A stretch of DNA of 64,000 bases from a bacterium (lineage in GTDB: Bacteria > Eisenbacteria > RBG-16-71-46 > CAIMUX01), in NCBI GenBank assembly GCA_030431975.1, contig JAUIHP010000024.1:5321-69320 (forward strand). The letters are read 5' to 3'. The notes below the pieces were generated by a model that made no database searches, was not told the origin of the DNA, and was given only the letters and a program-made list of their open reading frames with translations. Position 1 is the stretch's first letter. Each line of letters opens with the position of its first letter. The position numbers were made by a program, and so were the translations under genes. Of this stretch, positions 14,270 to 62,212 are shown piece by piece.

Positions 14270-15259
14270 CTAGAAGTTGTACGAGATCGAGAACTTGCTC
14301 ACGCGGTCAAGCGATCTCGCCTGCGGAACGCTGGCATAGTCCGCGGTAAACCGACCGATGCCGAAACCGGCGCCGAAGGTCGGGTCGCGAATGTCACCGT
14401 CTTTGTCGTGGATGTAGCCCGCCCGAAGGGCAAACGAATCCTGGTACCGGACCTCGGTTCCGCCGTTGAGAATCGGAGTCTCGTCGCTGTAGACGAGCGA
14501 CTTGTTGAAGTCACCGGCGAGGATGACGTTGAAGTCGCCGGAGGAAACGACGCGGGCGCCGAAGCCGATCTTGAGGTTCCGGCCGATGGGGTCGGCTTCG
14601 TCCTGATCGATGTAGGCGATGTCCGGCCCGAGATTCTGAACGTTGACGGCAAAGTTGATCGGGATGTTGCCCAACATGGGCGTGCCCTTGAAGCGATAGA
14701 GGAGAGCCAAGTCGGCGCCGAAGGTGTCACCGCTTCCCTGCTCGCCATTCTCCGTGGCCCAGCGAGGCGCCAGGTCGACGTAGACATACTTCAGGGTCAT
14801 TCCCGCAGCCAGTCCCGGCGCGAGCTCCGTACCGATGGAGATCTGCGGGGAGATCTCGTAACTCGTGAAGTTTCCGAGGCTGACTCCGTCTCCCGTCACG
14901 GCCTCGCTCTCTCCGTAACCGAGGTAGACGATGGAAGCGCCGATGCCTCCCCAACCGGGCAGGTGCATCGAGTAGCCGAGGAACTCGTAATAGACGTCGT
15001 CGGCCAGGTCCGGAACGAGCTTGGCGTGCATGAGGGAAAAGACGTGGTCACGTCGCCAGGCCAAAGCGGCCGCGTTCCACCAGTTTGCCGTCGCGTCCTC
15101 GGGCAGGGCGACGAAGGCGCGGCCCATTCCGTCCGCGCGGGCGCCGGGCGTGATGTTCAGGGACTGGGCCCCGGAGGTTGTTTGGGCTTGGGCGTCGGAA
15201 GCCCAAAGGGCAGCGGAACCTAGGAGGGCCGCCAGCCCTACCCATCGCAGTTGTCTCAT
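14270..15259 (-). CDS. porV: PorV/PorQ-family outer-membrane T9SS shuttle protein
   Basis: SLNITPGARADGMGRAFVA..DATANWWNAA PorV signature; LRAGY; terminal Phe (SISYNF). Start moved to ATG 15259 (MRQLRW signal peptide). Confidence 0.85.
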   Translation of the reverse strand: MRQLRWVGLAALLGSAALWASDAQAQTTSGAQSLNITPGARADGMGRAFVALPEDATANWWNAAALAWRRDHVFSLMHAKLVPDLADDVYYEFLGYSMHLPGWGGIGASIVYLGYGESEAVTGDGVSLGNFTSYEISPQISIGTELAPGLAAGMTLKYVYVDLAPRWATENGEQGSGDTFGADLALLYRFKGTPMLGNIPINFAVNVQNLGPDIAYIDQDEADPIGRNLKIGFGARVVSSGDFNVILAGDFNKSLVYSDETPILNGGTEVRYQDSFALRAGYIHDKDGDIRDPTFGAGFGIGRFTADYASVPQARSLDRVSKFSISYNF

Positions 15260-15439
15260 ATTCGGGTCGCACTCCTCTTCGAGGTTTAGGCGCGCAGGGT
15301 CATAGAACTCGCCCGGTCGTCCCCTGGCTGAGGGATTGTAACCCCACAAATCCCAAGGGTTCCGAAAACTTCTGATCCGAGTCCGTCAGGCGCCCTGCCC
15401 CGGCCAGCAGGACAAGGGTCCGGCCTTCGGATCGCATGG

Positions 15440-18070: not shown

Positions 18071-21000
18071 CTATCTGGAAACGACCAGCCGACCGATGGT
18101 CGACTGCGACGCTCCCCCGGCCGACGTGGCCTCGAGTTTGTAGAAATAGACGCCGTTGGCCAGCCCGTCGCCGTCCTCATCGCGTCCGTCCCAGGGAATC
18201 CCCTCGTCGGCCAACTGGTTCGGCGTGAGGAAGCCCCCCTCCAACGTGCGGATCTTGCGACCCCGCAAAGTGAAGATCTGGATTTCTACCTCGGACGCCT
18301 CCCCAATGGAAGCATAGAAGCGCGTCGAGCGTTCCATCGGGTTGGGAAGGTTGAAGACCTGCGACAGCCCAAGCCCGAATTCTCCGGAACCGGAGAGGGC
18401 AAAGTTCAGCCGGACTCCCGATCGATTGTTGACGTTGTCGGAAGCCTCGAGAACCAACTCGTACCGTCCTTCGGGCAGATTCGAGGGCAACGGGTGTTCG
18501 AGGGTCGCCTCCCGAAAATCGTTTCCGAAGACAACAGAGTTGGAGATGTCCTCGGCGAAGATCGTCTGCCCGTCCTGCTCCAGCCGAAAGACGACGGAGC
18601 GCGAAGGCACGAGCCCGGTCACATTGATTCCGCTCGCATCCTGCAGAGACGCCGTGAAGACAGCCTCCGGCGAAACGGTAGTTCCGCCGGAGACGAAGCC
18701 CAGTTGCAGCTCCGGACCATCGACGTCATCGGACGGCGGCGGCGTAGTCTCGGGAACGGTCAGGCTCGGCAGGGAACCCGCGGCGTCCCGGGTTCCGTCG
18801 TCCGCATACACGTAGAGACGGGCCGCACCGCGATCGCCGGTTCGGAGCGCCGCCGGAGTGAAGAGGGACGCGTCAAATCGTCCGCCTTGGACCGTGGCCC
18901 GACCTCGATAAATGGTCGCACCTGGGAGTTGATAGTCGTTGCGAGTGTCGTTTGCCGTGGGTTCGCGCACGATCTCGGAGTCGAAGAGTTCGACCCAGGC
19001 CTCGCCGTCGAAGTCTTCCGCCACCTCGCCGTCGGCTCCGAAGATGCGTCCGGACACCTGAACCGGGGTTCCCCGTGGAAGAACACCGCCGAGAGGATCA
19101 CCGTCCAATGTCTTCAACTCGACATCCATCTCGTGCCCGGGGGCGACCAGAGCAATGGCGGGGTCACCGTGCATGGCATACCGCCGCTGGTTGAGCCCGG
19201 TGTTGTTGAGCAGAAGCTTCCCCACCGCCGCAGCTTCCCCCATCGGCCGGCTGTTGCTGGAAAGACCGTCGGGAAAGCACCGATCGAAGAAGAGTTTGTT
19301 CATGTCGGCGTTACCCTGGGCGAAAGCAACAGCCGACGCGGAAAAAACGACCGGAGATCCCCCGTTCTCGTAACGGATCAGAGCCTCGGCCAATCCCTCA
19401 CCGGACGAGTCGTACTTTCCGATGGAACAGGATGCCGTCAGGAACAGGAACATGCGGTCGGGGTTGTCGAGGCTGGCAACGGACGAGACGTCGAAGATCC
19501 GTTCATCCGAAACTTGCGTCTCTCCCCCATGGCCGGTGTAGTTGACGACCAAAGTGCCGGCGTTCATCGACCCCAACAGGTCGGCCGCCGACGCCGGCTT
19601 GTTCGTGAAGATGCACTCCGGACCGTACTCGTAGAGGTAGTTCTTTTTCAGGTCCATCGACGCTGGAAAATACTCCTCCAACTGCTCCGTTTGGCGCATG
19701 TGGAGAAAGCCCAGGTCGTCGGAGATGGTTCCCTGGCAAACGTCGTCGGCGACGAGCGTAATCCGGTTGCGCCACGGCCCGAAGTCCGACTGCTGCTCGT
19801 AGCGAATCGTCTTTTCAACCATGGTCCGCGCTTCCGCCGGCGTCCGGGCGACGAGGCGACCCAGAAACATGTCCATTCCAACTTCCCCGGGCCCATCGAG
19901 CAGCACCAGGTAGTCGTCCGAGGAAAACCTGGGGTCGTAGATCGTGCGAACGAAAATGTTGTCGAAGTAGCGGATGTAGGTCGGAACGAAGTCCGGCGAG
20001 TCTTCGACGACGAGACCCCGATGGTCCCGGTGCGCGTCTCCCATGAGCAGGGCGTAGGCCGGGCCGTCCTCCGGGTTCCCGCCGGTCCACTGGTCCCGAG
20101 CAAGCTCGAAGAAATTCCGAATGGCGTTCGGATCTTTGCGGCCGAAAGCGAACTCGTCGTAGACCTGCTGGACATCGACGACGGCCACGGAGGCAGTGGC
20201 CCGATCCGGGAAGTTCGAACGACGATACTCGGCCAGGTCTTCGGCTTCGTCGATGAAGTCCCCGTGGGTGAGGATGATCATCTGCACCGCGTCGGTTCTC
20301 TCTCGCAGATACCCGCCGACCGGCTCCGACTCGAGCGTCAGTTCGGGACTCCGCATGGCGTCGTTCTGGGACGCGACCAGGCGCGCGGGCTCGTCGCGCG
20401 AAACGTCGAAACGGAACTGCAGGGTCGACCCAACCGCGCTCCCCTCGATCAGGGACGGTCGTCTCGGGTCGGTGGCGTCCACGACCCGGACATCCCCCGG
20501 ATCGGAAAACTCCGCAACTTCGAAGGACTGCGGACCGACGACTCCACCGAGAAAGGTGGCGAGTCGACCGTCCCGGGCCCGGAGTTCACGTGTGTAGGTC
20601 ATCTCGATGAACGCCAGGTAGACGATGTCGAGGCGTGAGATGGTCGCGTCGGGATGCGCGCGGCCGATCAGCTGGAAGACCTGCTGGTCCCCCGGCACCA
20701 GCTGGGTTCCCATGGACTCGACGTCCTGACGCCTTCGCTCATCCCATTGATACCGGCCCAGGGTCTCGCCGTTGAGGACCAGCTCGAGGTCGTGGTCCGG
20801 GGGTGCCGGGACCTCGTCACTGTCCGGATCGTTGGCGCCCCAGAAGCGGGCAAAGACTTCCACGGGTTCCGTGGCCACCGGATCCGGAATGCTGACGGTC
20901 ACGTTTTGGAACTCGTCCCGGACCTCGGTCGTCACGAGTTCGCGCCACCAGAACATCTCCCAGTCCGCCGAGTCGGGCGCCGGATTTTCCCGCTGGCGCG

Positions 21001-22135
21001 CATCGAAAAACTCATTCCCTTCATGGTGAACGCGGTCTCGAACGGAGCGCACGAACGGGGCTTGGGCACCGGATCCATCGACGACGGCCATGCGCACAGG
21101 CTCGCCCTGGAACGTCCCTCCCCATGTCATCCAGTACGTCGACTCGTTGGCGGAAGGGTCACGATAGAAGTCTTCCAAGCCGGGCCGATCGACGCCCTTG
21201 TTCGAGAACCAGTCATCCGGTCCGTGACCGAGGAAGATCAGTCGGTCGGAAGGATCGAAGACTCCATCCTCGAGTCCTTCGGTCATGACGGCGATTTCTT
21301 CCATCCAGCCCGGCGCGTCGGCCAGAAAGGCATCATCCGGGATCACGAGTTGCGTCCCGGTGAAGACACGGATCGATGACGGATCGGAGATGTCCGACAG
21401 ATCGATCCCAATCCGCTCGAGATCGGTTCCAGCCACCGCGTACAGACCCTCGACCTGTGTGGTCATCCGAACCCAGGGCGCAGACGTGCTGGAAAAGTAA
21501 TCCCCGTCCCCGGCCAGGGCGGGTTGCGCCTCGGCGGGAACCCGGCGCCACCCCTTGCCGCTTTCGTAATTGAGAAAGGCCGCTTCGTAGAGTGACTCGT
21601 AGCCGTCTCTTCCGGACTCTGCACGAGCGCGGGAACGGGCGTCCGCTTCCGCGTCGATCCCGCCTTCGATGACGACGGTCGCCCTGACGGAAACCAGGGC
21701 CTCGATCTGACCACCGGTCGTGAGCCTCCACGGGGTCACGCCGAGCGGGACTCCAAACTGCTGACGAACGTAGGTCGGCTGGCCCGCGGAAACGACCGGC
21801 CCCTGCCAAGCGTCGGGAAGTCTCGGATCCGGAGGGAGAGTGAGGTCCGGACGCGGCTCCCACCGGGCGTCCCGAATCTGGATATCGGCGATGCCCCCGC
21901 CGGGTGGGACGGCGATCCAGGTCGTGGGCCGATTCACGGACGGGAACCGTCCCTCTGTCTCGAGCCCGTTCCCGAAGCCGGCCGAAGCCGCTTCCGCCCC
22001 GTCCCAGGCGACTTCGAGTGTCGAACCGGACTCGCCGACGACTCGGAACTCCGCCCGGACCGACGAGGATCCGAGACCGACGAGCACGAATGAAAGGAGT
22101 GTGAGGAAAGAAAAGAGGATGTGTTTGGATCTCAT
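18071..22135 (-). CDS. porU: T9SS sortase PorU (peptidase C25) with FlgD-like CTD
   Basis: VYDEFAFG..DPNAIRNF, LLMGDA, SSDDY, FLGRL, VADD; catalytic VNYTGHG and LTASC; MHGDPAI; CTD NLPNP...WDGRDEDG..LANGVYFYKL. Confidence 0.88.
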   Translation of the reverse strand: MRSKHILFSFLTLLSFVLVGLGSSSVRAEFRVVGESGSTLEVAWDGAEAASAGFGNGLETEGRFPSVNRPTTWIAVPPGGGIADIQIRDARWEPRPDLTLPPDPRLPDAWQGPVVSAGQPTYVRQQFGVPLGVTPWRLTTGGQIEALVSVRATVVIEGGIDAEADARSRARAESGRDGYESLYEAAFLNYESGKGWRRVPAEAQPALAGDGDYFSSTSAPWVRMTTQVEGLYAVAGTDLERIGIDLSDISDPSSIRVFTGTQLVIPDDAFLADAPGWMEEIAVMTEGLEDGVFDPSDRLIFLGHGPDDWFSNKGVDRPGLEDFYRDPSANESTYWMTWGGTFQGEPVRMAVVDGSGAQAPFVRSVRDRVHHEGNEFFDARQRENPAPDSADWEMFWWRELVTTEVRDEFQNVTVSIPDPVATEPVEVFARFWGANDPDSDEVPAPPDHDLELVLNGETLGRYQWDERRRQDVESMGTQLVPGDQQVFQLIGRAHPDATISRLDIVYLAFIEMTYTRELRARDGRLATFLGGVVGPQSFEVAEFSDPGDVRVVDATDPRRPSLIEGSAVGSTLQFRFDVSRDEPARLVASQNDAMRSPELTLESEPVGGYLRERTDAVQMIILTHGDFIDEAEDLAEYRRSNFPDRATASVAVVDVQQVYDEFAFGRKDPNAIRNFFELARDQWTGGNPEDGPAYALLMGDAHRDHRGLVVEDSPDFVPTYIRYFDNIFVRTIYDPRFSSDDYLVLLDGPGEVGMDMFLGRLVARTPAEARTMVEKTIRYEQQSDFGPWRNRITLVADDVCQGTISDDLGFLHMRQTEQLEEYFPASMDLKKNYLYEYGPECIFTNKPASAADLLGSMNAGTLVVNYTGHGGETQVSDERIFDVSSVASLDNPDRMFLFLTASCSIGKYDSSGEGLAEALIRYENGGSPVVFSASAVAFAQGNADMNKLFFDRCFPDGLSSNSRPMGEAAAVGKLLLNNTGLNQRRYAMHGDPAIALVAPGHEMDVELKTLDGDPLGGVLPRGTPVQVSGRIFGADGEVAEDFDGEAWVELFDSEIVREPTANDTRNDYQLPGATIYRGRATVQGGRFDASLFTPAALRTGDRGAARLYVYADDGTRDAAGSLPSLTVPETTPPPSDDVDGPELQLGFVSGGTTVSPEAVFTASLQDASGINVTGLVPSRSVVFRLEQDGQTIFAEDISNSVVFGNDFREATLEHPLPSNLPEGRYELVLEASDNVNNRSGVRLNFALSGSGEFGLGLSQVFNLPNPMERSTRFYASIGEASEVEIQIFTLRGRKIRTLEGGFLTPNQLADEGIPWDGRDEDGDGLANGVYFYKLEATSAGGASQSTIGRLVVSR

Positions 22136-22317
22136 GGATTCTCCCGCAGACGAACCTGGAGACGGGCGCCTATACTACTGGGCTGGTCCAGTGGGCTGGT
22201 CCAGGACACGGTTCTTCCGCAGGGCCTCCTTGCGAGGCTAGCAACGGGAAACCTCAACGTCAACGGAGCCCCGAACGGTTGTAACCCTTCGGATGGATAC
22301 AGGTTTCCAGCAATAGC

Positions 22318-28024: not shown

Positions 28025-29098
28025 ATGACTCACATACCTGCACTCGAAGCCGGGGAGCGCCGGGCGCTCCTCGATGTCATCCGTCGAATCTCTCTGCAGC
28101 GGGGTGACTTCACGTTGTCCTCCGGGGCGAAGAGCGATCACTACCTGGACCTTCGCCTGACAACCACCGACCCGGCCGGGGCCCGGCTTTCCGCACGGGC
28201 GCTTCTCGCGGAAGCATCCCGCCTCGGAGTGTCCGTCGTCGGCGGCCCCACGCTGGGAGCCGATCCCATCGTCGGCGCGACCGTTTGCGCCAGCGCCGAT
28301 ACTCCCCATCCGGTCCGCGGCTTTCTCGTTCGGGCCGCCGCCAAGGCGCACGGCATGGGAAAACAGGTCGAGGGCCATCTCTCGAAAGGCGACCGGGTCA
28401 TCATTCTCGATGACGTCGTGACCTCAGCCGGATCCATGATCAAGGCCGTCGATGCGGTTCGAGAAGCCGGCGGCATCGTCGAAAGCGCCTTCTGTCTGGT
28501 CGACCGAAACGGTGGTGGACGGGAACGTCTTGCCGAGATCGGACTGCCCCTGACCGCCGTCTTCCATCTCGAGGAGGTCCTGGCGGAGGACGACGGCTGT
28601 TCGACCGATTCCGCGGCCGGGATAGGGACGACTACCTCGCCCGCTGCTACCTCGCCCCCAGGCTCCGGCGACAACTGGCCGCCTCGAACCCCCCGGGTCA
28701 CGGTCGACGCCCTGCTCGAGTTGGTCCCCGGTCACGTGCTGCTCATCGAGCGGAAGTATGAGCCCCACGGCTGGGCCCTCCCCGGTGGGTTCGTCAACGA
28801 AGGCGAAAGCCTGGAAGACGCCCTGGCGCGGGAAGTACGCGAGGAGACCGGACTCCGCATCGAAAAGTCGGTCCAACTGCACACCTACTCCGATCCCGAT
28901 CGCGACCCCCGTTTCCCGACGGTCAGTTGCGTGCAGGTCGCCGTTGCGCACGGAGACTTCCGGGCGGGTGATGACGCGGCCAACGGACGCCTCGTTCCCT
29001 TGGACGACCTGCCCGACGATCTGGTTTTCGATCACAGGCAGATCATCGAGGATTTCCGCGAAGGTCGATTTGGTGTGTCACCGGGACATCTTCACTAG
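28025..29098 (+). CDS. pyrE: Orotate phosphoribosyltransferase fused to a NUDIX hydrolase
   Basis: GDFTLSSGAKSDHYLDLR and IILDDVVTSAGS (PRPP motif), then a linker, then the Nudix box GGFVNEGESLEDALAREVREETGL, RDPR and FDH. Start ATG 28025. Confidence 0.88.
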   Translation: MTHIPALEAGERRALLDVIRRISLQRGDFTLSSGAKSDHYLDLRLTTTDPAGARLSARALLAEASRLGVSVVGGPTLGADPIVGATVCASADTPHPVRGFLVRAAAKAHGMGKQVEGHLSKGDRVIILDDVVTSAGSMIKAVDAVREAGGIVESAFCLVDRNGGGRERLAEIGLPLTAVFHLEEVLAEDDGCSTDSAAGIGTTTSPAATSPPGSGDNWPPRTPRVTVDALLELVPGHVLLIERKYEPHGWALPGGFVNEGESLEDALAREVREETGLRIEKSVQLHTYSDPDRDPRFPTVSCVQVAVAHGDFRAGDDAANGRLVPLDDLPDDLVFDHRQIIEDFREGRFGVSPGHLH

Positions 29099-29226
29099 AA
29101 CCGGGGATCGACCCGTTTTGTTCGACCCGTTTGTTCGAACCGCTACCCGACGGATTCTCTTACCACTCCCCCTATCCGACTGCTAGACTCCGCTCTAGCC
29201 AGCCGGGGACAGGAAGGAAGCGTTTG

Positions 29227-32200
29227 ATGTTGCCTCTCCATGAGCCGTCCTCGTATGCCCCCAGCAACCGGAATCTGGCATCCGGCCCCACGCGGCGCCG
29301 ATTCGATCTCGTACTGCTGGCTCCCCTTTTCTCTCTTCTCCTTCTCGCCATCACAGGCACGGGGTCGTTCGGGCAGTACGAAGAGCGCTTGGTCAACGAC
29401 GACTTCTTCGGCGAGGAGAATCGGGTCGACCCCTACCCTGTGCGGCTGACCGATGGATCGATCCTGGTCCTGTGGTCTGACAACGGCCGCGGACACACGG
29501 ACGTACTCGCCCGGCGCTTCGACGCCGAGATGGAGCCTTTGGGTGAGGCCTACCGACTGAACAGCGGCGAGGGGCTCTTCTTCCACCGCAACGTGCGAGT
29601 CGCCGGCCCGGCGGCCAACGTCATTCTCGCGACGTGGGAAACCAATCGCGGCGGCACGACGACCGTCCGTGGCATTCGGCTGTCCGCAGATACGGGTCAA
29701 CCGCTCGGCACGGACTTCCGTATCGACGAGGACCTGGGGGTCGGAAGCATCCAGGACTCGGACCTCCATATGGCGAGCGACGGAACGGCCCTGGTCGTTT
29801 GGACCGAGCGCATTCTTTCCAAGCAGCGGGTTATCGCGCGAAGGATCGCGGCGGACGGGTCGCTCTTTCCCAGTTTCCAGGCCCATCCGGCCTCAGGTCC
29901 GCAGGACCAACACCAACCCTCCGCCACGCGACTCCCCGACGGGCGATGGATGGTCGCCTGGGCAGAGGAAGACGAGAGTCGGGACTGGGACGTATTCGCG
30001 CGGATGCTCTCGCTCAGTGGAGATCTCATCGGTGACGCTTTCCAGATGAACTCGGATCTCTTCCTCGCCGGGATTCAATGGGAACCCGACCTCGCGGTCA
30101 TTGGATCCCGGGTACTCGCAGTCTGGGGAGACGGCCGCGAGGGTCCGATCGACATCTGGGGACGTTGGTACGAGTTCTCCGGTGACCCGGACGGAGCCGA
30201 GTTCTCCATGAGGACGAATCCGGACACCGCACCGGACAGTGAGCCGGTGATCACGCCCGGTCCCGACGGTTTCGCCGTCAGCTGGTTCGGCGGCGTCGAC
30301 GACCGTCAGCGAAGTCTCGTCCGCTACTTCGACAATGAGGCCGTCGGTGTCTTGCCGGCGCGCGCACTCGACGACCCTGCCAGCGGGATCCTGCAGCGGA
30401 ACGGACAGGTCCTGCCCAATGACGACGGTACATGGATCGAGTTTTGGAGCGACGACCGAACCGCGGTTTACAACACCTACTGGAGACAGTTCGATCCCCA
30501 GAGCGAAGTCGCCGGAGACATCGGCACCCTGTGGGAACTCGCCACCTCTTCGAGTCAGGTCTACGCCGACATTGCGCTGTTCCCGAACGGAGAAGCGATC
30601 GTGGTCTGGGGAGAGCTTCAGTTCGGTGACCTCAGCATCGTCGGCCGCTTTCTCGATACCGAGGGTGTTCCCGTCGGCTCCAGCTTTCAGATCAGTTCGA
30701 TCCCGGCCAACGCCGACTTCACGACGCTCGACTCCTACGAGGTCATCCAGGACTACGCGCCCCATGTCGCGGCCAACGAGAATGGGTTCGTCGTCACCTG
30801 GACCATCAATCAGCTGGGTGGGCGCCTCAACGCCTGGGCTCAGTACTTTGACCGGGACGGCGACCCGATCGGCGGTAACTTCGGAGTCGCTCCGAACGAC
30901 CAGACGCTCCACCAGACCTCGCCCCGCCCCGCCATGCTCAACAATGGCGGCTTCGCGATCAGCTTCCTGCTGAACGACGAAGTGTACGTTCAGTACTACG
31001 GAACGGACGGGCTACCGACGGGACCCCGAATCGGATGCGTCGACAGCGAGGGCACGTTCGCCTCTCAGCTTCGACCGGATATCGCCGTCTCGCCCTTTGA
31101 CGAGGTCATGATCACCTGGCTCGACCAGCGTAACGGCGGTTGGGACGCCTACAGCCAGAGGTTCACGCCGGGGCAGGAACCGGTTCGGTGCCGATTCGAG
31201 GAGCTGCCTTTCTGCAACACGATTCTCCACGGAGAGGACGCGTCGTTCTCAAACCAGGATGGCGTTGCCGTGGCCTACGGCTCGGATCGAACGATCACGG
31301 TGTTCGAGACCCAACCCGGCACCGAAGGCGCGATCGACTGTCGACTCGAAGTCTTCCCGTCCCTGGTTCGCGGCGAGGGGTCGGAAGGGACTGAGACCGT
31401 GGGTGGATCCCAGATCACGTTCTTCCGACTCAATCGCGGCTTCGAAACTCCCGGCCGCAAGTATCCTCAGGTCGCCGTGGCGCCAAACGGCCGCTTCATC
31501 ATCACCTGGTGGGACAATCACGACGGCAACACGCAGATGCTGGCACAGAAGTACTCCGCAGACGGAGTGGCTGACGGGAAGCCCTTCCCCATCCACGGGA
31601 ACGACATCGATGGAAGCCGCTTTGCTCCACGAGTCGTCGTGGACAACGAGCGCGTTCACTTTGTCTGGACCGATTCCCGCCGCGCCAAGGGCTGGGACGT
31701 ACGCTCGCGGCGGGTCGACTGGAACTTTGCCGGAGCGCCGACCCCTGTTCTGCTTCGTCACTGGGACGGTGTCGCTCGCGCGGAAGGCGGAGTCGAGCTG
31801 ACGTGGAGCACGGCGTCGGAACTCGGGTTCGCGGGGTTCCATGTCTATCGGGAAATCGCCGGAGAGGACCCTCATTCGCAACGCAGCCCCAGTGATCAGG
31901 CCGTTCGCACCAATGAAGGCCTGGTACGCTCGACGACCGGAGTCTACGGGCACATCGATACGTCGGCACCGGAAGAGGAACGTCTCGCGTACTTCCTCGA
32001 GGCTGTCGACCTCGATGGCCGAACCGAGTTTTTCGGACCGCTGGTGGTGCGTTCCGGGGCCGCCCCCGCGCCGGCTCTGGTACTGCCGAATCCGTTCCGT
32101 GATCAGGTCAGGCTCATGCTGTCTACGTCCGAAGACGCGGGATTCGAGATCTATTCCGCCGCAGGCCGGCGGATTCGAGTCCTCGAGGCCCGAGGGGATG

Positions 32201-32319
32201 AGGCCTTCCTGAGTTGGGATGGAAGGGATGAGGGCGGAGCGTTGATGCCGACGGGGATCTACTTCGCCCGGCCACTCTCAGGGACCGGACCTGCCGTCAA
32301 ACTCGTCCGGGTGGACTGA
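29227..32319 (+). CDS. Large secreted repeat (propeller-like) protein with FN3-like stalk and FlgD/T9SS CTD
   Basis: Signal h-region; repeated Q..P.vA...G.f.vvW...v.arrf...G...G..F.vN units; PVLL..VELTWSTASE stalk; LPNPF...WDGRDEGG..MPTGIYF. Confidence 0.8.
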   Translation: MLPLHEPSSYAPSNRNLASGPTRRRFDLVLLAPLFSLLLLAITGTGSFGQYEERLVNDDFFGEENRVDPYPVRLTDGSILVLWSDNGRGHTDVLARRFDAEMEPLGEAYRLNSGEGLFFHRNVRVAGPAANVILATWETNRGGTTTVRGIRLSADTGQPLGTDFRIDEDLGVGSIQDSDLHMASDGTALVVWTERILSKQRVIARRIAADGSLFPSFQAHPASGPQDQHQPSATRLPDGRWMVAWAEEDESRDWDVFARMLSLSGDLIGDAFQMNSDLFLAGIQWEPDLAVIGSRVLAVWGDGREGPIDIWGRWYEFSGDPDGAEFSMRTNPDTAPDSEPVITPGPDGFAVSWFGGVDDRQRSLVRYFDNEAVGVLPARALDDPASGILQRNGQVLPNDDGTWIEFWSDDRTAVYNTYWRQFDPQSEVAGDIGTLWELATSSSQVYADIALFPNGEAIVVWGELQFGDLSIVGRFLDTEGVPVGSSFQISSIPANADFTTLDSYEVIQDYAPHVAANENGFVVTWTINQLGGRLNAWAQYFDRDGDPIGGNFGVAPNDQTLHQTSPRPAMLNNGGFAISFLLNDEVYVQYYGTDGLPTGPRIGCVDSEGTFASQLRPDIAVSPFDEVMITWLDQRNGGWDAYSQRFTPGQEPVRCRFEELPFCNTILHGEDASFSNQDGVAVAYGSDRTITVFETQPGTEGAIDCRLEVFPSLVRGEGSEGTETVGGSQITFFRLNRGFETPGRKYPQVAVAPNGRFIITWWDNHDGNTQMLAQKYSADGVADGKPFPIHGNDIDGSRFAPRVVVDNERVHFVWTDSRRAKGWDVRSRRVDWNFAGAPTPVLLRHWDGVARAEGGVELTWSTASELGFAGFHVYREIAGEDPHSQRSPSDQAVRTNEGLVRSTTGVYGHIDTSAPEEERLAYFLEAVDLDGRTEFFGPLVVRSGAAPAPALVLPNPFRDQVRLMLSTSEDAGFEIYSAAGRRIRVLEARGDEAFLSWDGRDEGGALMPTGIYFARPLSGTGPAVKLVRVD

Positions 32320-45634: not shown

Positions 45635-46015
45635 CTTGGGCCTTCCTCATCCGGGGTGCGAGTCTTCTCTTCTAAGGAGATCGGTGACCTTCCCACGGCA
45701 CTTGAGGAGGAGCAGTCCATACCGGCCAGGGCGAGCCCAAACTGGAAGTCACCGCCGTAGATCCTTGGTTTGCTAGGGGCTTAGCCCAAGTCATCCATCG
45801 AGGTCGGGGCCCCGTCGCTATGGCTGGAGCGACACGAGTTGGAGAATGCGGAAAGAACTGCCGGGTTACGACCTCGACACGGTCACACGAAGGGCAAAAG
45901 AGCCTACGCATAACCGGGAAGAGGTTTACGATGAAGGGAGAGGCTTGCGGTTTTCAGAACGACCGCAGCCCGGTCCACAGGCGGCTGATCCGGCACCTAC
46001 TGCGCGGAGGACTCG

Positions 46016-46645
46016 ATGCGACGACTCGCCCTGATCCTGGCCATGGCCCTGGCAACGTACGGAGTTTCTTCGGCAGAGGCCGCTGAACTCTCAGCCACCT
46101 ACACGGGTCAGTTCATCCATCTCGATTTGGAAGGAACGTTCGCGCAGTACACCGTCCTGCGCGCCCCGCAAGGAACGGAAGACTTCGATATCCTGGAGTT
46201 CAACGAAACCGGTTGCACCCAGCGCTGCACCTACGAGGACTTCGCCATCTACCATGGGGGCGCGTATGACTACGCCATCCATGTCCTCATGCCGAATGGC
46301 GACATCCGGACCTTTGGACCGACCTCGATCACGATCAGTCCCGAATTGGGACTCGATCTTTCCAGTCGGGCCACCCCGAATCCAGCCCGGCCCCGGACTC
46401 GTATCTCGTGGGTCGTGCCGGCCACGGTGGCGCAGACGGGCACCGTCCGCACGGCCGTGACCATTCATGATCCGACGGGCCGACAGGTGAGCGTGCTGTA
46501 CGACAGTGTCGTTCCGGTCGGAGAGTACTCGGTCGCTTGGGACGGGACGGACGCCGCTGGGCGGGAGCTTCCTTCAGGAAGTTACTTCTACCGGATTCAG
46601 GCCGGCTTCCACTCTGAGGTCGGACGGATGGCCCTCGTCAAGTAA
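46016..46645 (+). CDS. Small secreted protein: signal peptide, FN3-like domain and FlgD/T9SS CTD
   Basis: MRRLALILAMALA signal; TPNPAR...IHDPTGRQV..WDGTDAAGRELPSGSYFYRI. GGAGG RBS. Confidence 0.82.
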   Translation: MRRLALILAMALATYGVSSAEAAELSATYTGQFIHLDLEGTFAQYTVLRAPQGTEDFDILEFNETGCTQRCTYEDFAIYHGGAYDYAIHVLMPNGDIRTFGPTSITISPELGLDLSSRATPNPARPRTRISWVVPATVAQTGTVRTAVTIHDPTGRQVSVLYDSVVPVGEYSVAWDGTDAAGRELPSGSYFYRIQAGFHSEVGRMALVK

Positions 46646-46663: not shown

Positions 46664-47290
46664 TTACCGAACGAAGAGCTGCTTGATCGCGCCCCACGTC
46701 GAGTCGAGGGTCGGGGTCGGGTCGCCCGGACGCACGCCATACGTCCCCGTGTAGATGTAGTCGTTGGAGAAGGAGAGATCTCCGTCGGCCGCATTCCCCG
46801 CGACGTAGAAGGTCACGCTCTCCACCGCCGCATCGGGGGCCACCCACTCGAAGTCCCAAGTGACCGGACCGTCGGCCTGGCCCTGGTAGGTTCCCTCTGA
46901 AGTCTGTTTCAGGAAGTCGACTTCGGAACCGCCGGAATTCTCGGAGATCTGAGTGTTGACCGCATCGGTCACGAGAAGAGATCCCCCCTCTTGCAAGAAG
47001 TCCGCGTCGTCCAGAACGGTCAGCTCAAAACCCCATCGAGCCTGGCCCGGATCCTCGAGCTGCACCGTCAGAGCGTAGGTCTGACCGGGGACATATTCAG
47101 CCGGCAGACCGAGAATCTGCAGCCCCCCGTCGCCGGAGTTGACCGGAAAACTGAAGTGGCAAAGCGTGCAGTCGAAGTTGTCCGGAGGATTGCCGGCAAA
47201 ACCGTCGGCCGGCCCAAGACTGGACGCGAAGACGGTGGCAGGAAGTGCGCAAAGGGCCAGAGCGAACGCGGCGCAGGAACGGGACTTCAT
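46664..47290 (-). CDS. Choice-of-anchor V / Reeler-like secreted protein with CxxCH and WGxIK tail
   Basis: Signal peptide from ATG 47290; GNPPDNFDCTLCH; YVPGQTY; WGFELT; WDFEWVAP..VTFYVAGNAADGD; tail STWGAIKQLFVR. Confidence 0.8.
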   Translation of the reverse strand: MKSRSCAAFALALCALPATVFASSLGPADGFAGNPPDNFDCTLCHFSFPVNSGDGGLQILGLPAEYVPGQTYALTVQLEDPGQARWGFELTVLDDADFLQEGGSLLVTDAVNTQISENSGGSEVDFLKQTSEGTYQGQADGPVTWDFEWVAPDAAVESVTFYVAGNAADGDLSFSNDYIYTGTYGVRPGDPTPTLDSTWGAIKQLFVR

Positions 47291-58168: not shown

Positions 58169-58259
58169 CTTAGGTCTTAGGTCTTAGGTCTTAGGTCTTA
58201 GGTCTTAGGTCTTAGGTCTTAGGTCTCAGGTCTCAGGTCTCAGGTCTCAGGTCTCAGGT
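58169..58259. repeat. Heptamer tandem repeat: 8x CTTAGGT then 5x CTCAGGT
   Basis: Direct count of 13 contiguous units starting 4 nt after the TrmH stop. Confidence 0.97.
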
Positions 58260-58430
58260 CTCAACCTGCCTAGGATCTCAACTAGGCGAAGGTCTCAATC
58301 CTGCCAGGGTTCCAGCCCGCCCAACTCCCGTGCCCGACAACCTTTCCGCCTCGTTTTCGCGAAGTCCCCCACCTGCGCTAAGATCGAACCCGCAACATCC
58401 GCACTCCACTTCGACTCCAGGAGGTCGCCC

Positions 58431-59942
58431 TTGCTATCCCGAAGTGAAATCACCTGTCCCTCGACTCTACTCGCCACCGTGTTTTTCTCGAGCCTTCTAA
58501 CCTGGGGGGTCCATGCCGAGGCTGCCCAGCTGGAGAAGGTGGTGGCCGACATCGAAAAGCCGATCACCGTGACGTCGCCGCCGGGCGATGCTCGTGAGTT
58601 CTTCATCGAACAGGAGGGACGCATTCGCATCATCGACGCGAGCGGACAAGTCCTCGCCACACCCTTTCTCGACATCACGTCGCTCGTCGAGTGGGACGGG
58701 CTTTTTCAGGGCCTCCTCGGGCTGGCCTTCCATCCCGACTATGCGAGCAACGGCTACTTCTTCGTCGACTACCTCGTCGCAGGTGGAGACACGCGCATCT
58801 CGCGATTCGAAGTGTCCTCTGATCCCAACGTCGCCGACCCAGGTTCCGAGTCTGTCGTCATCACCATCGATCAACCCGGAACCGACCACAATGGCGGCTA
58901 CATCGCGTTCGGGCCGCAGGACGGCTACCTCTATGTTTCGATGGGTGACGGCGGCTTTGGCGGAAGCCATCACGAGAACGGACAGGACACGAACGTCCTT
59001 CTCGGCAAGATCCTGCGCCTCGACGTCGACGTTTCCTCGGGTTACCAGATCCCTCCTGACAATCCGTTCGTCGGTGTGCCCGGTTACCGCGAAGAGATCT
59101 GGGCGTTTGGACTGCGCTCTCCCTGGGGAATGAGTTTCGACCGGGAAACCCACGATCTCTGGATTGCCGACGTCGGTCTGAACTCCTGGGAAGAACTCAA
59201 CTTCCAGCCTGCCGCAAGCACCGGGGGCGAGAACTACGGGTGGAGCCGGATGGAAGGCAACCATTGCTACCAACCGCCTTCAGACTGTGACGACGGCTCG
59301 ATGATCCATCCCATCTACGAGTATCCGCACGGCCCTCTTTGCTCGATCAACGGAGGGTTCGTCTATCGCGGTTCGGCAATCCCCGAGTACCAAGGGCTGT
59401 ACTTCTTCTCGGACTGGTGTACGAGTCAGATCTGGACCATCGAATACGACGGGAACGAAGTCACCGAGCTCGTCAACCGCACTGCCGAACTCGCACCTCC
59501 GGGCGGAGAGTCCTTCAGTTTTCTCTCCGGGTTCGGTCAGGACGCAGACGGCGAGTTGTATGTCATCGACTGGAACTGGACGAATCCCAACTCGGGACAG
59601 ATCTACAAGATCGTGCCGGATGCAGCCGACGCTCCCCTGGACACTGAGGCGACCTCTGCGGGTTCGGGCCTCGAACTTCGTTTTGCACAACCCAACCCTT
59701 TCCAGAGTCACACGCGCATTCAACTCACGGCGGCCCCGGGCACGAGCGTCGACCTCTCGATTCACAGCCCGTCCGGTCGTCTCGTTTGGTCGGAGCGTAT
59801 CGAAAGGTCCGACTCGGAATTGCACTGGATCGAATGGGACGGACGTGACGCCACAGGGACGCGCCTACCCTCCGGCACGTACTTCCTGAAAGCGCAGAGC
59901 GGCGAGACTGTTCGTTCGCAACGCATTCACATCGTGAGATAG
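58431..59942 (+). CDS. PQQ-dependent sugar dehydrogenase (GSDH family) with FlgD/T9SS CTD
   Basis: GLLGLAFHPDY, HNGGYIAFGP.DGYLY, LGKILR, EIWAFGLRSPW, ADVG..EELN; CTD QPNPF..WDGRDATG..LPSGTYF. Confidence 0.9.
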   Translation: MLSRSEITCPSTLLATVFFSSLLTWGVHAEAAQLEKVVADIEKPITVTSPPGDAREFFIEQEGRIRIIDASGQVLATPFLDITSLVEWDGLFQGLLGLAFHPDYASNGYFFVDYLVAGGDTRISRFEVSSDPNVADPGSESVVITIDQPGTDHNGGYIAFGPQDGYLYVSMGDGGFGGSHHENGQDTNVLLGKILRLDVDVSSGYQIPPDNPFVGVPGYREEIWAFGLRSPWGMSFDRETHDLWIADVGLNSWEELNFQPAASTGGENYGWSRMEGNHCYQPPSDCDDGSMIHPIYEYPHGPLCSINGGFVYRGSAIPEYQGLYFFSDWCTSQIWTIEYDGNEVTELVNRTAELAPPGGESFSFLSGFGQDADGELYVIDWNWTNPNSGQIYKIVPDAADAPLDTEATSAGSGLELRFAQPNPFQSHTRIQLTAAPGTSVDLSIHSPSGRLVWSERIERSDSELHWIEWDGRDATGTRLPSGTYFLKAQSGETVRSQRIHIVR

Positions 59943-60745: not shown

Positions 60746-62212
60746 TTAGTTCTTGAACGAACCCTTGATCTGACCCCAGCTCCGCTCGATCGTCGGAACG
60801 ATGTCGCACGGGTTCGGGTCGCAGACCGTGTCGTCTCCCTGGTAGACTCCCGGACGCGCGGCACATTCATCCTCGGTCAGGATCTCGCACATCTCTTCGA
60901 CGCAGCAGGCGCCTTCGCGCATCGGACCGCAGTCCGGATCGTCGAGGGTGAAGTCGGCGAGGGAGCGCGGACGCATCTGGTAACCCTCGTCGTAGGGCGA
61001 GGAGCTGTCGAACTGACCACCGATACCGAGAACGCTGAACGCGCCGCCCGGAGTGGCGGTACCGTCGATGTCCGTCTCCTTGTCGATACGCATCGTCGTC
61101 GGGCCGGAGCCGTCGTCAACCGTCAGGTTGCCGTTGCTGCCGTCCGCCGGGAACTCGCTGCCATCGGTGATGGTGACGCAGGTCAGCTTGATGAGGCAGC
61201 TCTCGTAGATCTCTCCGCCGGTGGCGAGATCGTTCGTGGAGACCTCGATCGCAGCCGGGACCGCGTCCGTTCCGATGACGGCAACGTCGTCGATGCTGAC
61301 CTCGGTCAGACCGTTGAAGAAGTCGACCTCACCCGTGACGAGAACGACGTCGCCGATATTGAGCGCAGCCATGTCACCACCAAAGATCGTGACGCAGCAG
61401 CCACCATCGGTGATGGAGTACTCGTTCGTGGTGTTGGAGAAGTTGATGCTGTTGACGACACCCTCGGTCTCGACACGCTGGCCGAAGAGAACCGGGAAGC
61501 CGTTCATATCGTTCTCCATGATCTCGCAGACGGTCAGCTGCTGGTAGGCACACGGATCCGGATCACAGACCGTGTCGTCGCCCAGGTACTCACCACCAAG
61601 TCCGTTACAGTCGGCCTCGGAAACGACCTGACAGCCGGCACCCGGAACGCAGCAGGCGCCCATCGGAACCATGGCGCATTCGACGTCGTTGGCAGAACCC
61701 GGCGTCGGTGTGTCGTCAGCAAAGAAGTCCGCGCCGTTGTTGTCCGTGTCGGAACCGTCCGGGCAACGGGCGATGGAGATGTCCGGACCCGGATCGACGG
61801 TCGGCGTACCCTCGCCTGCAAAGACCTCGTCCGGATCGAAGGAACCGTAACCGACGGCGTCGATGGTGGCGCCAGCGGCGTCGCGAAGGAGGATCGAGTC
61901 CGGTCCGTTCTGGAAGTCGGTGTCGGCGATCTGATCACCGAAGGCCTGACCGACGACGAAGTAGCCGCTGGCCGGAATGAGGCCGACGAGGTCGACGGTC
62001 ATGTACTCGGTACCACCGTTGCCATTCACGCCGACGAGGGTGTAACCCGTCAGGTCCAACCCGGCGTCACCCTTGATCTCGACCCAGGTCTCGTCGTCGC
62101 CGCCGGCATCGTCATACACGGCTTCGTTGATCACCGGCTGGGCCAGAGCGGCAGTACCGGCGAAGGCCAGTCCAGCGATGGCAAAGAAACCTGTCCGTAG
62201 CCAATGCTTCAT
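60746..62212 (-). CDS. Secreted lamin-tail-domain protein with OB-like domains, two Cys-rich repeats and WGxIK tail
   Basis: Signal peptide; PVINE..D..WVEI; DAVGYG; SIARCPDG.DT; PTPG..N; GACC...C...C...YxGDDTVCDPxPC twice; tail SWGQIKGSFKN. Confidence 0.82.
   Translation of the reverse strand: MKHWLRTGFFAIAGLAFAGTAALAQPVINEAVYDDAGGDDETWVEIKGDAGLDLTGYTLVGVNGNGGTEYMTVDLVGLIPASGYFVVGQAFGDQIADTDFQNGPDSILLRDAAGATIDAVGYGSFDPDEVFAGEGTPTVDPGPDISIARCPDGSDTDNNGADFFADDTPTPGSANDVECAMVPMGACCVPGAGCQVVSEADCNGLGGEYLGDDTVCDPDPCAYQQLTVCEIMENDMNGFPVLFGQRVETEGVVNSINFSNTTNEYSITDGGCCVTIFGGDMAALNIGDVVLVTGEVDFFNGLTEVSIDDVAVIGTDAVPAAIEVSTNDLATGGEIYESCLIKLTCVTITDGSEFPADGSNGNLTVDDGSGPTTMRIDKETDIDGTATPGGAFSVLGIGGQFDSSSPYDEGYQMRPRSLADFTLDDPDCGPMREGACCVEEMCEILTEDECAARPGVYQGDDTVCDPNPCDIVPTIERSWGQIKGSFKN

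Follow-up and report, generated by a model that had tools for sequence, protein, structure and literature searches.

Proteins A and B, both encoded on the minus strand of the window (the whole stretch of DNA analysed, 64,000 nt), end in a short tail that recurs on about 80 proteins of the source genome, G000 (a 6.19-Mb assembly of 59 contigs, 97% complete). The tail is modular, stands strictly at the C-terminus, is enriched on proteins with signal peptides, excludes the C-terminal domain (CTD) of the T9SS (type IX secretion system) and replaces it on homologous passengers, and is conserved across phyla. From this position and context we infer that the tail is probably an undescribed, portable C-terminal address tag of Sec-exported proteins. 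We consider it rather probable that a linear peptide of 15 residues suffices for addressing proteins to the envelope or surface in several uncultured, Bacteroidota-related phyla, be it as the first non-folded signal of the T9SS or as the tag of a route whose receptor lies outside the known sortase families.

C-terminal sorting signals define the surface proteins of a bacterium and therefore carry weight in secretome prediction. The tail marks about 1.8 to 2% of the genes of G000 and up to 46 proteins per genome in the other phyla sampled; since it escapes every Pfam and NCBIfam model, secretome predictions for Eisenbacteria, for Latescibacteria-type and for related lineages would be incomplete. 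If the addressing function holds, by either route, about 2% of the genes of such genomes carry an address that is read by no annotation pipeline. Should the type IX pathway be used, recognition would be reducible to a linear peptide, which sharpens the question of what the T9SS reads; should it not be used, there would be a sorting machine of the envelope still to discover. A portable tag of 15 residues might also serve as a tool for surface display.

The features of the window on which the analysis draws are the following:

46664..46717, minus strand: tail of protein A, TPTLDSTWGAIKQLFVR, including the stop codon (tail profile E 9.6e-8 at G000:C15:51993-52055)
46664..47290, minus strand: protein A, 208 aa, exported, choice-of-anchor V domain and tail (NF041895)
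60746..60799, minus strand: tail of protein B, VPTIERSWGQIKGSFKN, including the stop codon (tail profile E 2.8e-11 at G000:C15:66072-66140)
60746..62212, minus strand: protein B, 488 aa, exported, with lamin-tail domain (PF00932, 42.7 bits), OB-fold region, cysteine modules and tail
45989..46645, plus strand: neighbour of protein A with an 82-aa T9SS/FlgD-type CTD, the alternative signal (iterated CTD profile; FlgD-like match)
58209..59942, plus strand: PQQ-dehydrogenase-like protein with a T9SS type A CTD at its end (TIGR04183, 30.2 bits; iterated CTD profile)
28975..32319, plus strand: ORF of 1114 aa with a T9SS-type CTD at its end (iterated CTD profile)
18074..22174, minus strand: PorU, T9SS sortase (NF033707, 539.7 bits, cut-off 420)
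14273..15385, minus strand: PorV, T9SS cargo shuttle, product P0003 of 329 aa (NF033709, 194 bits)

Sequence, position and carriers of the tail

Protein A begins with the signal-peptide-like sequence MKSRSCAAFALALCALPATVFASS and ends in ...TPTLDSTWGAIKQLFVR-stop; protein B ends in ...VPTIERSWGQIKGSFKN-stop. The original prediction that the two share a tail was borne out. Its consensus, PT-x3-[ST]-W-G-x-I-K-x2-F, holds but was drawn too narrowly: across the 80 ORFs of G000 with a tail the consensus is P-[TV]-[IVL]-[ED]-[ST]-[ST]-W-G-x-[ILV]-K-x-x-[FY]-R (15 residues), in which Trp and Lys are invariant and Gly is invariant in G000, whose place Ser or Ala takes in some of the relatives. Position by position, the 80 tails read P (88%), T/V/I, I/V/L, E/D (66%), S/T, S/T (96%), W, G, x, I/L/V, K, x, x, F/Y (88%), R (55%). 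The tail would thus consist of a flexible stretch, P-[TV]-x-[ED]-[ST]-[ST], and a short predicted helix, W-G-x-[ILV]-K-x-x-[FY]-R, which usually ends the protein.

A profile built from 56 of the G000 tails matched, at E<=0.01, 80 ORFs of this genome, 78 of them within 15 aa of the stop codon, 2 at a distance of 16-40 aa and none deeper. The same confinement is seen with simple patterns: of the 108 occurrences of WG.[IVLM]K in the six-frame ORFs (58,001, each at least 60 aa long), 87 lie within 15 residues of the stop codon, and in a crude set of 4,322 genes 54 of the 60 occurrences of [ST]WG.[IVL]K lie within this distance. Exactly 4 residues follow the Lys in 34 of the 80 tails and 3 to 14 residues in 76 of them. 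The last residue is Arg in 44 tails.

When a profile of the last 33 residues, which also spans the cysteine module preceding the tail (see below), was run against 1.84 billion representative proteins, 757 proteins were found at E<=0.001. Among the best 150 of these 757, the motif lies within 15 residues of the end in 148 and is solely internal in none; in the remaining 2 the cysteine module was matched and there is no tail. Exactly 4 residues follow the Lys in 108 of the 148, and this fixed end suggests that the free carboxyl end is read. The possibility that the tail is the start of a longer domain was rejected, there being no internal occurrence in G000 at E<=0.01 nor in the best 150 global matches. 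The sole weak internal match in G000 (S-T-W-G-Y-I-K-A-V-F-R, E 0.023, in ORF C11_+_1_24189_526 of contig C11, 221 residues before the stop codon) may be a chance resemblance or the fossil of a gene fusion.

NCBIfam and Pfam yielded no family on the 40-aa ends of proteins A and B at E<=10, and a literature search (full text for motif and topic, in main articles) found no account of such a tail.

Half of the G000 tails are preceded by a cysteine module of about 30 residues, C..GG.[YF].G..T.CDPNPC, which is matched by no Pfam model (examples are found at 60800-60900 of the window, in protein B, and in loci L013, L019 and L045); Cys is found at position -10 in 50% of the tails. One could therefore ask whether the tail is just the last part of this module (C..GG.Y.GD...CDPNPC), or of another domain, or owes its appearance to chance. 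This explanation can be regarded as refuted: the other half of the tails follow unrelated domains in 26 passenger groups, protein A is devoid of the module, the module recurs internally without a tail in the public collection (up to 16 stretches per protein), and the statistics of C-terminal position exclude chance.

Being strictly C-terminal and of a preferred length, the tail could alternatively be a tag for degradation or regulation, which a tail-specific protease of the periplasm or a PDZ protein would recognize and which would determine turnover rather than location. Known tail-specific proteases and PDZ domains of the DegS type prefer non-polar or aromatic ends, and Arg is the most common last residue of the tail. 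A degron on about 2% of the genes that is kept across phyla would be hard to explain, as would the presence of the tail in the slot of a sorting domain on homologous passengers. We therefore consider this possibility very improbable.

Of the 54 genes in the crude set that carry the tail, 34 have a signal-peptide-like N-terminus, as compared with 855 of the 4,268 other genes (crude heuristic; Fisher p 1e-11), and by a more lenient heuristic 69 of 87 candidate tail ORFs are positive. The C-terminal scan for [ST]WGxIK, proposed together with the original prediction, thus shows the expected enrichment on signal-peptide proteins. The 80 passengers fall into 26 BLAST groups unrelated to each other, of 41, 10, 3, 3 and 2 members plus 21 singletons. 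Searching 56 of the 80 carriers with Pfam revealed lamin-tail (LTD), beta-helix/PMP, peptidase M28, redoxin, CBM20, CHRD, laminin-G and SdrD_B domains; 35 of the 56 gave no match. The genes are dispersed over the contigs of G000 and mostly stand singly. These results agree with the prediction of a modular C-terminal tag on exported proteins beside the T9SS/FlgD-type CTD: the motif is confined to the ends of proteins that largely have signal peptides, is found on about 80 genes rather than on two, and belongs to no Pfam or NCBIfam model.

A large paralogous family without Pfam domain (L004, L006, L018, L024, L028, L030, L032, L036) comprises proteins of about 220-300 aa with the cysteine module and the tail at the end; in these proteins A-G-P-N-x-G-[GIV]-L follows directly after the signal peptide. 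In protein B, region 279-368 resembles the N-terminus of ExeM/NucH (weak match to the endonuclease model NF033681, 22.8 bits versus a cut-off of 300); the OB-fold matches of Pfam on this protein are below threshold.

Exchange of the tail for the T9SS C-terminal domain

CTD-bearing proteins of G000 were collected from its ORFs with our own iterated profile of the FlgD-type (PF13860) T9SS domain of about 82 residues. The domain ends 310 ORFs, and the overlap with the 80 tail ORFs is zero. A CTD-bearing paralogue exists for 57 of the 80 tail passengers (E<=1e-5), and in 6 pair alignments the tail takes the place of the whole CTD at the same junction. Both proteins of the window have such paralogues in G000: that of protein A (on contig C22; 49% identity over 160 aa) and that of protein B (E 1.6e-30) terminate in a T9SS CTD. 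The median length of the ORFs is 294 aa for tail carriers versus 767 aa for CTD carriers; the smaller size of the tail proteins may reflect a destination different from that of the CTD proteins.

Protein A had been predicted to contain a choice-of-anchor domain, and it is indeed a member of the choice-of-anchor V family, scoring 97.6 bits with NF041895 (cut-off 42), a model that covers the passenger only. The accompanying statement that C-terminal signals are interchangeable on such domains was confirmed for this family with the best 120 homologues of protein A in the public collection. The tail, as W-[GSA]-x-[IVLM]-K, ends 55 of the 120 (median length 211 aa); a T9SS CTD ends about 45 (43 found by script, P0174 and P0199 by eye; about 280 aa); in about 8 the end is dockerin-like, and in 6 it is a membrane helix with a basic terminus. 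The passenger cores were placed on a quick maximum-likelihood tree, on which the tail label changes 5 times, at least 2 of the changes being forced by well-supported branches. Because of this alternation among homologues and the changes on the tree, we consider the tail to be one more "choice of anchor", which has been repeatedly swapped.

The tail has much in common with the T9SS type A CTD (TIGR04183/PF18962; here of the FlgD-Ig type, PF13860). Both are C-terminal, modular and found on Sec-exported proteins; they share passenger families, genomes and lineages, and have a basic last residue; and known CTDs have already been shortened. In Prevotella intermedia, T9SS CTDs of 43-55 aa with three strands are still cleaved and glycosylated (PMC11969387), and the same paper refers to a study reporting that GFP was secreted with no more than the last 22 residues of Hbp35. 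We tentatively propose that the tail is a linear, minimal signal of the type IX pathway, a proposal to which we give somewhat less than an even chance. The tail would do the same job as the 82-residue CTD does on homologous passengers: after Sec export it would dock on a general component of the T9SS (PorV, the translocon or the sortase complex), and docking would lead to passage across the outer membrane or to retention at it, possibly with cleavage in the Pro-Thr linker. PorU and PorV of the window are candidate members of this pathway.

Several observations count against such a role in the T9SS. The tail has 15-17 residues rather than 43-100 and is modelled as one short helix rather than a beta-sandwich or sheet; it lacks motifs B, D and E and has no HMM match, TIGR04183 and all other NCBIfam and Pfam models missing it at E<=10. 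Nothing in the tail corresponds to the conserved end of the G000 CTDs (G-V-Y-F-x-R-L ... [RK]-hydrophobic x4-R) or to the linker before the CTD. Type A, B and C CTDs are all domains of about 100 residues or more according to PMC10202324; the T9SS signals described so far all have a folded beta structure and comprise at least 43 residues, and a helix-modelled tail of 15 residues is a different kind of object.

Distribution across phyla and the search for a reader

With the profile trained on G000, tails were found in all 31 genomes of the same order and in 128 of the 151 sampled genomes of the phylum (127 of 150 without the unpublished genome G043). They are scarce in family f8, in which 10 of 32 genomes had a match, with 1-3 each; the number of canonical tails per genome is 0-3. 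This family has kept PorU, 8 PorV-family genes and many CTD cargo proteins, which counts against the type IX pathway as the route of the tail.

A genome of the same order as G000, G022, was at first sight a tail-less contrast and was rejected as such since it contains the variant [ST]-W-S-x-I-K-A-L-Y-[KR], for example in ORFs 285-1205 and 1483-2544 of locus L197 (G022:C12:21947-25819); there are 8 pattern matches of W-S-x-I-K in G022 versus 1 control match. The "invariant" Gly is therefore lineage-specific, and profiles from a single genome undercount tails elsewhere. From this variant and the residual tails of family f8 it follows that there is no clean tail-less clade for phylogenetic profiling.

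An exact-pattern scan of species-representative genomes gave at least 132 loci, and 130 real tail ORFs were read among the matches listed. By record title, the first 80 loci among the matches listed belong to Eisenbacteria (most), Krumholzibacteriota, Latescibacterota, Cloacimonadota, Zixibacteria, Gemmatimonadota and many unclassified bins. A broader profile of 104 tails revealed the tail in three further phyla. In the phylum to which a Latescibacteria-titled genome belongs, 39 of 41 genomes have tails (1-38 each); in a small phylum reached via a Gemmatimonadota-titled record 12 of 12 genomes have them (2-46 each), and in Cloacimonadota 17 of 41 (exactly one each). In the two Cloacimonadota genomes that were read, the carrier is a protein of 234-238 aa which by eye resembles the OB-fold N-terminus of ExeM/NucH; its relative in G000 has a T9SS CTD in place of the tail. 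The remaining Cloacimonadota matches are on ORFs of 235-280 aa.

The T9SS sortase is present in every phylum in which the tail was found. All 41 genomes of the Latescibacteria-titled phylum contain PorU, as do 36 of the 41 from Cloacimonadota, among them all 17 with a tail; the 5 Cloacimonadota genomes without PorU (1.5-1.6 Mb) have no tail. Because the T9SS is present in essentially all genomes of the tail-bearing phyla, this co-occurrence hardly discriminates.

The T9SS operon of the window (2059-22174, minus strand) encodes, in this order, PorU, a TPR protein of 860 aa, PorV, an inactive metalloprotease of M6-like type, 4 proteins that were not assigned, a BamA-like barrel (far under the cut-off of TIGR03303, at 77.6 bits) and a PPIase. 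No reader of the tail was found among a second PorU, an extra PorV, the operon TPR protein, an exosortase and a small membrane protein of Cloacimonadota. There are two full-length PorU genes in G000, one in the window at 18074-22174 (540 bits) and one outside it (G000:C5:142087-146160, 456 bits), the latter in a cluster of five CTD-cargo genes. The second PorU was rejected as reader, two copies being found in 2 of 151 genomes, G000 included (E<=1e-90); at the same threshold 133 of the 151 have one copy and 16 have none, the genes often being split by contig ends. An extra PorV paralogue was likewise rejected: G000 has 7 matches to the PorV/PorQ family versus 8 in each of five tail-poor genomes. 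That no T9SS paralogue tracks the abundance of the tail also counts against the type IX pathway. The operon TPR protein was a promising candidate, since in tail-poor f8 genomes (G045, G049 and G051) PorU lies directly beside PorV, and was rejected when it turned up in 146 of 151 genomes, including 31 of the 32 of family f8. An orphan exosortase was rejected too, the one exosortase of G000 having 6 PEP-CTERM clients of its own.

In both Cloacimonadota genomes that were read, the tail gene is directly followed by one for a conserved small protein (about 121 aa) that has a membrane helix at its N-terminus (L218, 5182-6267, plus strand; L219, 5476-6586, minus strand), the other neighbours being different between the two. 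A homologue of this protein was not found in G000 (best E 0.29). Co-folding of window PorV (residues 24-329; alignment of 62 rows) with a 33-residue tail (56 rows) gave scores of 0.00 and 0.01, the mark being 0.32, which is an answer neither for nor against binding.

These results bear on the question whether a dedicated sorting system, encoded apart from its clients, serves the tail: an envelope receptor or enzyme would recognize the peptide together with its free end, and might attach the protein covalently via the invariant Lys or cleave at the Pro-Thr linker. The invariant Lys and Trp, and their preferred fixed distance to the C-terminus, would be well explained; the tail sits where homologues bear signals of dedicated systems, namely membrane anchors with a basic end and dockerin-like ends; and no curated model matches it. 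However, no candidate emerged from the search described, the small membrane protein of Cloacimonadota being without a counterpart in G000, and if a dedicated system served a single client, one would expect to find it beside that client. We hold such a system to be unlikely. One tail per tail-positive Cloacimonadota genome, and single, dispersed genes in G000, are better accounted for by a general machine than by a dedicated, linked enzyme. It is this argument, together with the shared passengers, the shared lineages and the precedent of shrinking CTDs, that makes us prefer the type IX pathway.

Predicted shape and comparison with other C-terminal signals

In its short C-terminal signature on many unrelated exported proteins of one genome, the tail is like PEP-CTERM/exosortase, GlyGly-CTERM, MYXO-CTERM, IPTL-CTERM and LPXTG, and it is interchangeable on choice-of-anchor domains as PEP-CTERM-type tripartite signals are. 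The start of the tail, [VT]-P-[TV]-[IVL]...W-G, is reminiscent of the signature of IPTL-CTERM, IPTL-S-E-W-G. Unlike the tripartite signals (PEP-CTERM, IPTL-CTERM, GlyGly-CTERM), the tail has no transmembrane helix, no basic cluster and no matching curated model; with 3 to 14 residues after the Lys in nearly all tails there is no room for a membrane-spanning helix. The beta-signal of outer-membrane proteins has an aromatic last residue (Phe, Tyr or Trp), which is the case in just 4 of the 80 tails.

An AlphaFold2 model of protein A (alignment of 54 rows; mean pLDDT 87) consists of a beta-sandwich, a linker of 10 residues and a short helix, W199-F206, predicted with moderate confidence (pLDDT about 70-74). 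Shuffled sequences have a lower hydrophobic moment than the last ten residues, at helical angles (z 4-6) as well as at the strand angle (z 6), so that the moment is ambiguous as to helix or strand. A helix, as in the original prediction, is supported by the model; the amphipathicity is not specifically helical by the moment. Over the last 12 residues the net charge averages +1.75; the tail helix, of about two turns, has a mean hydrophobicity of -0.13.

A detached helix of 8 residues after a flexible linker, basic and with a moment above the shuffles, is what one would expect of an envelope anchor that requires no machine, the main rival of the type IX pathway. Trp, Ile and Phe/Tyr would form one face of an interfacial amphipathic helix flanked by Lys and Arg, which would stick to a membrane leaflet or to LPS. 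E. coli PBP5 and PBP6 provide a precedent, a C-terminal amphipathic helix being the membrane anchor of these periplasmic enzymes; like the tail, it is a short helix with aromatic and basic residues at the end of exported soluble domains, and it needs no dedicated sorting enzyme. Such an anchor would also be in keeping with the failure to find a linked or co-varying gene, with the single copy per Cloacimonadota genome, for which no dedicated machine is needed, and with the tolerance, in part of the set, of C-terminal extensions of 1 to 14 residues.

Anchors of the PBP5/PBP6 type are, however, not known to be conserved in sequence across unrelated proteins or phyla, whereas in the tail some residues are invariant and the non-helical leader is conserved. 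The conservation exceeds by far what generic membrane binding would require (Trp and Lys invariant, a small residue after Trp), it includes the P-[TV]-x-[ED]-[ST]-[ST] stretch in sampled genomes and loci from several phyla, the helix is short and of low hydrophobicity, and most of the best global matches end at exactly the same distance from the Lys. For these reasons we regard a machine-free anchor as somewhat unlikely. If it were correct, the tail-bearing paralogues would stay at the envelope and the CTD-bearing paralogues would be secreted.
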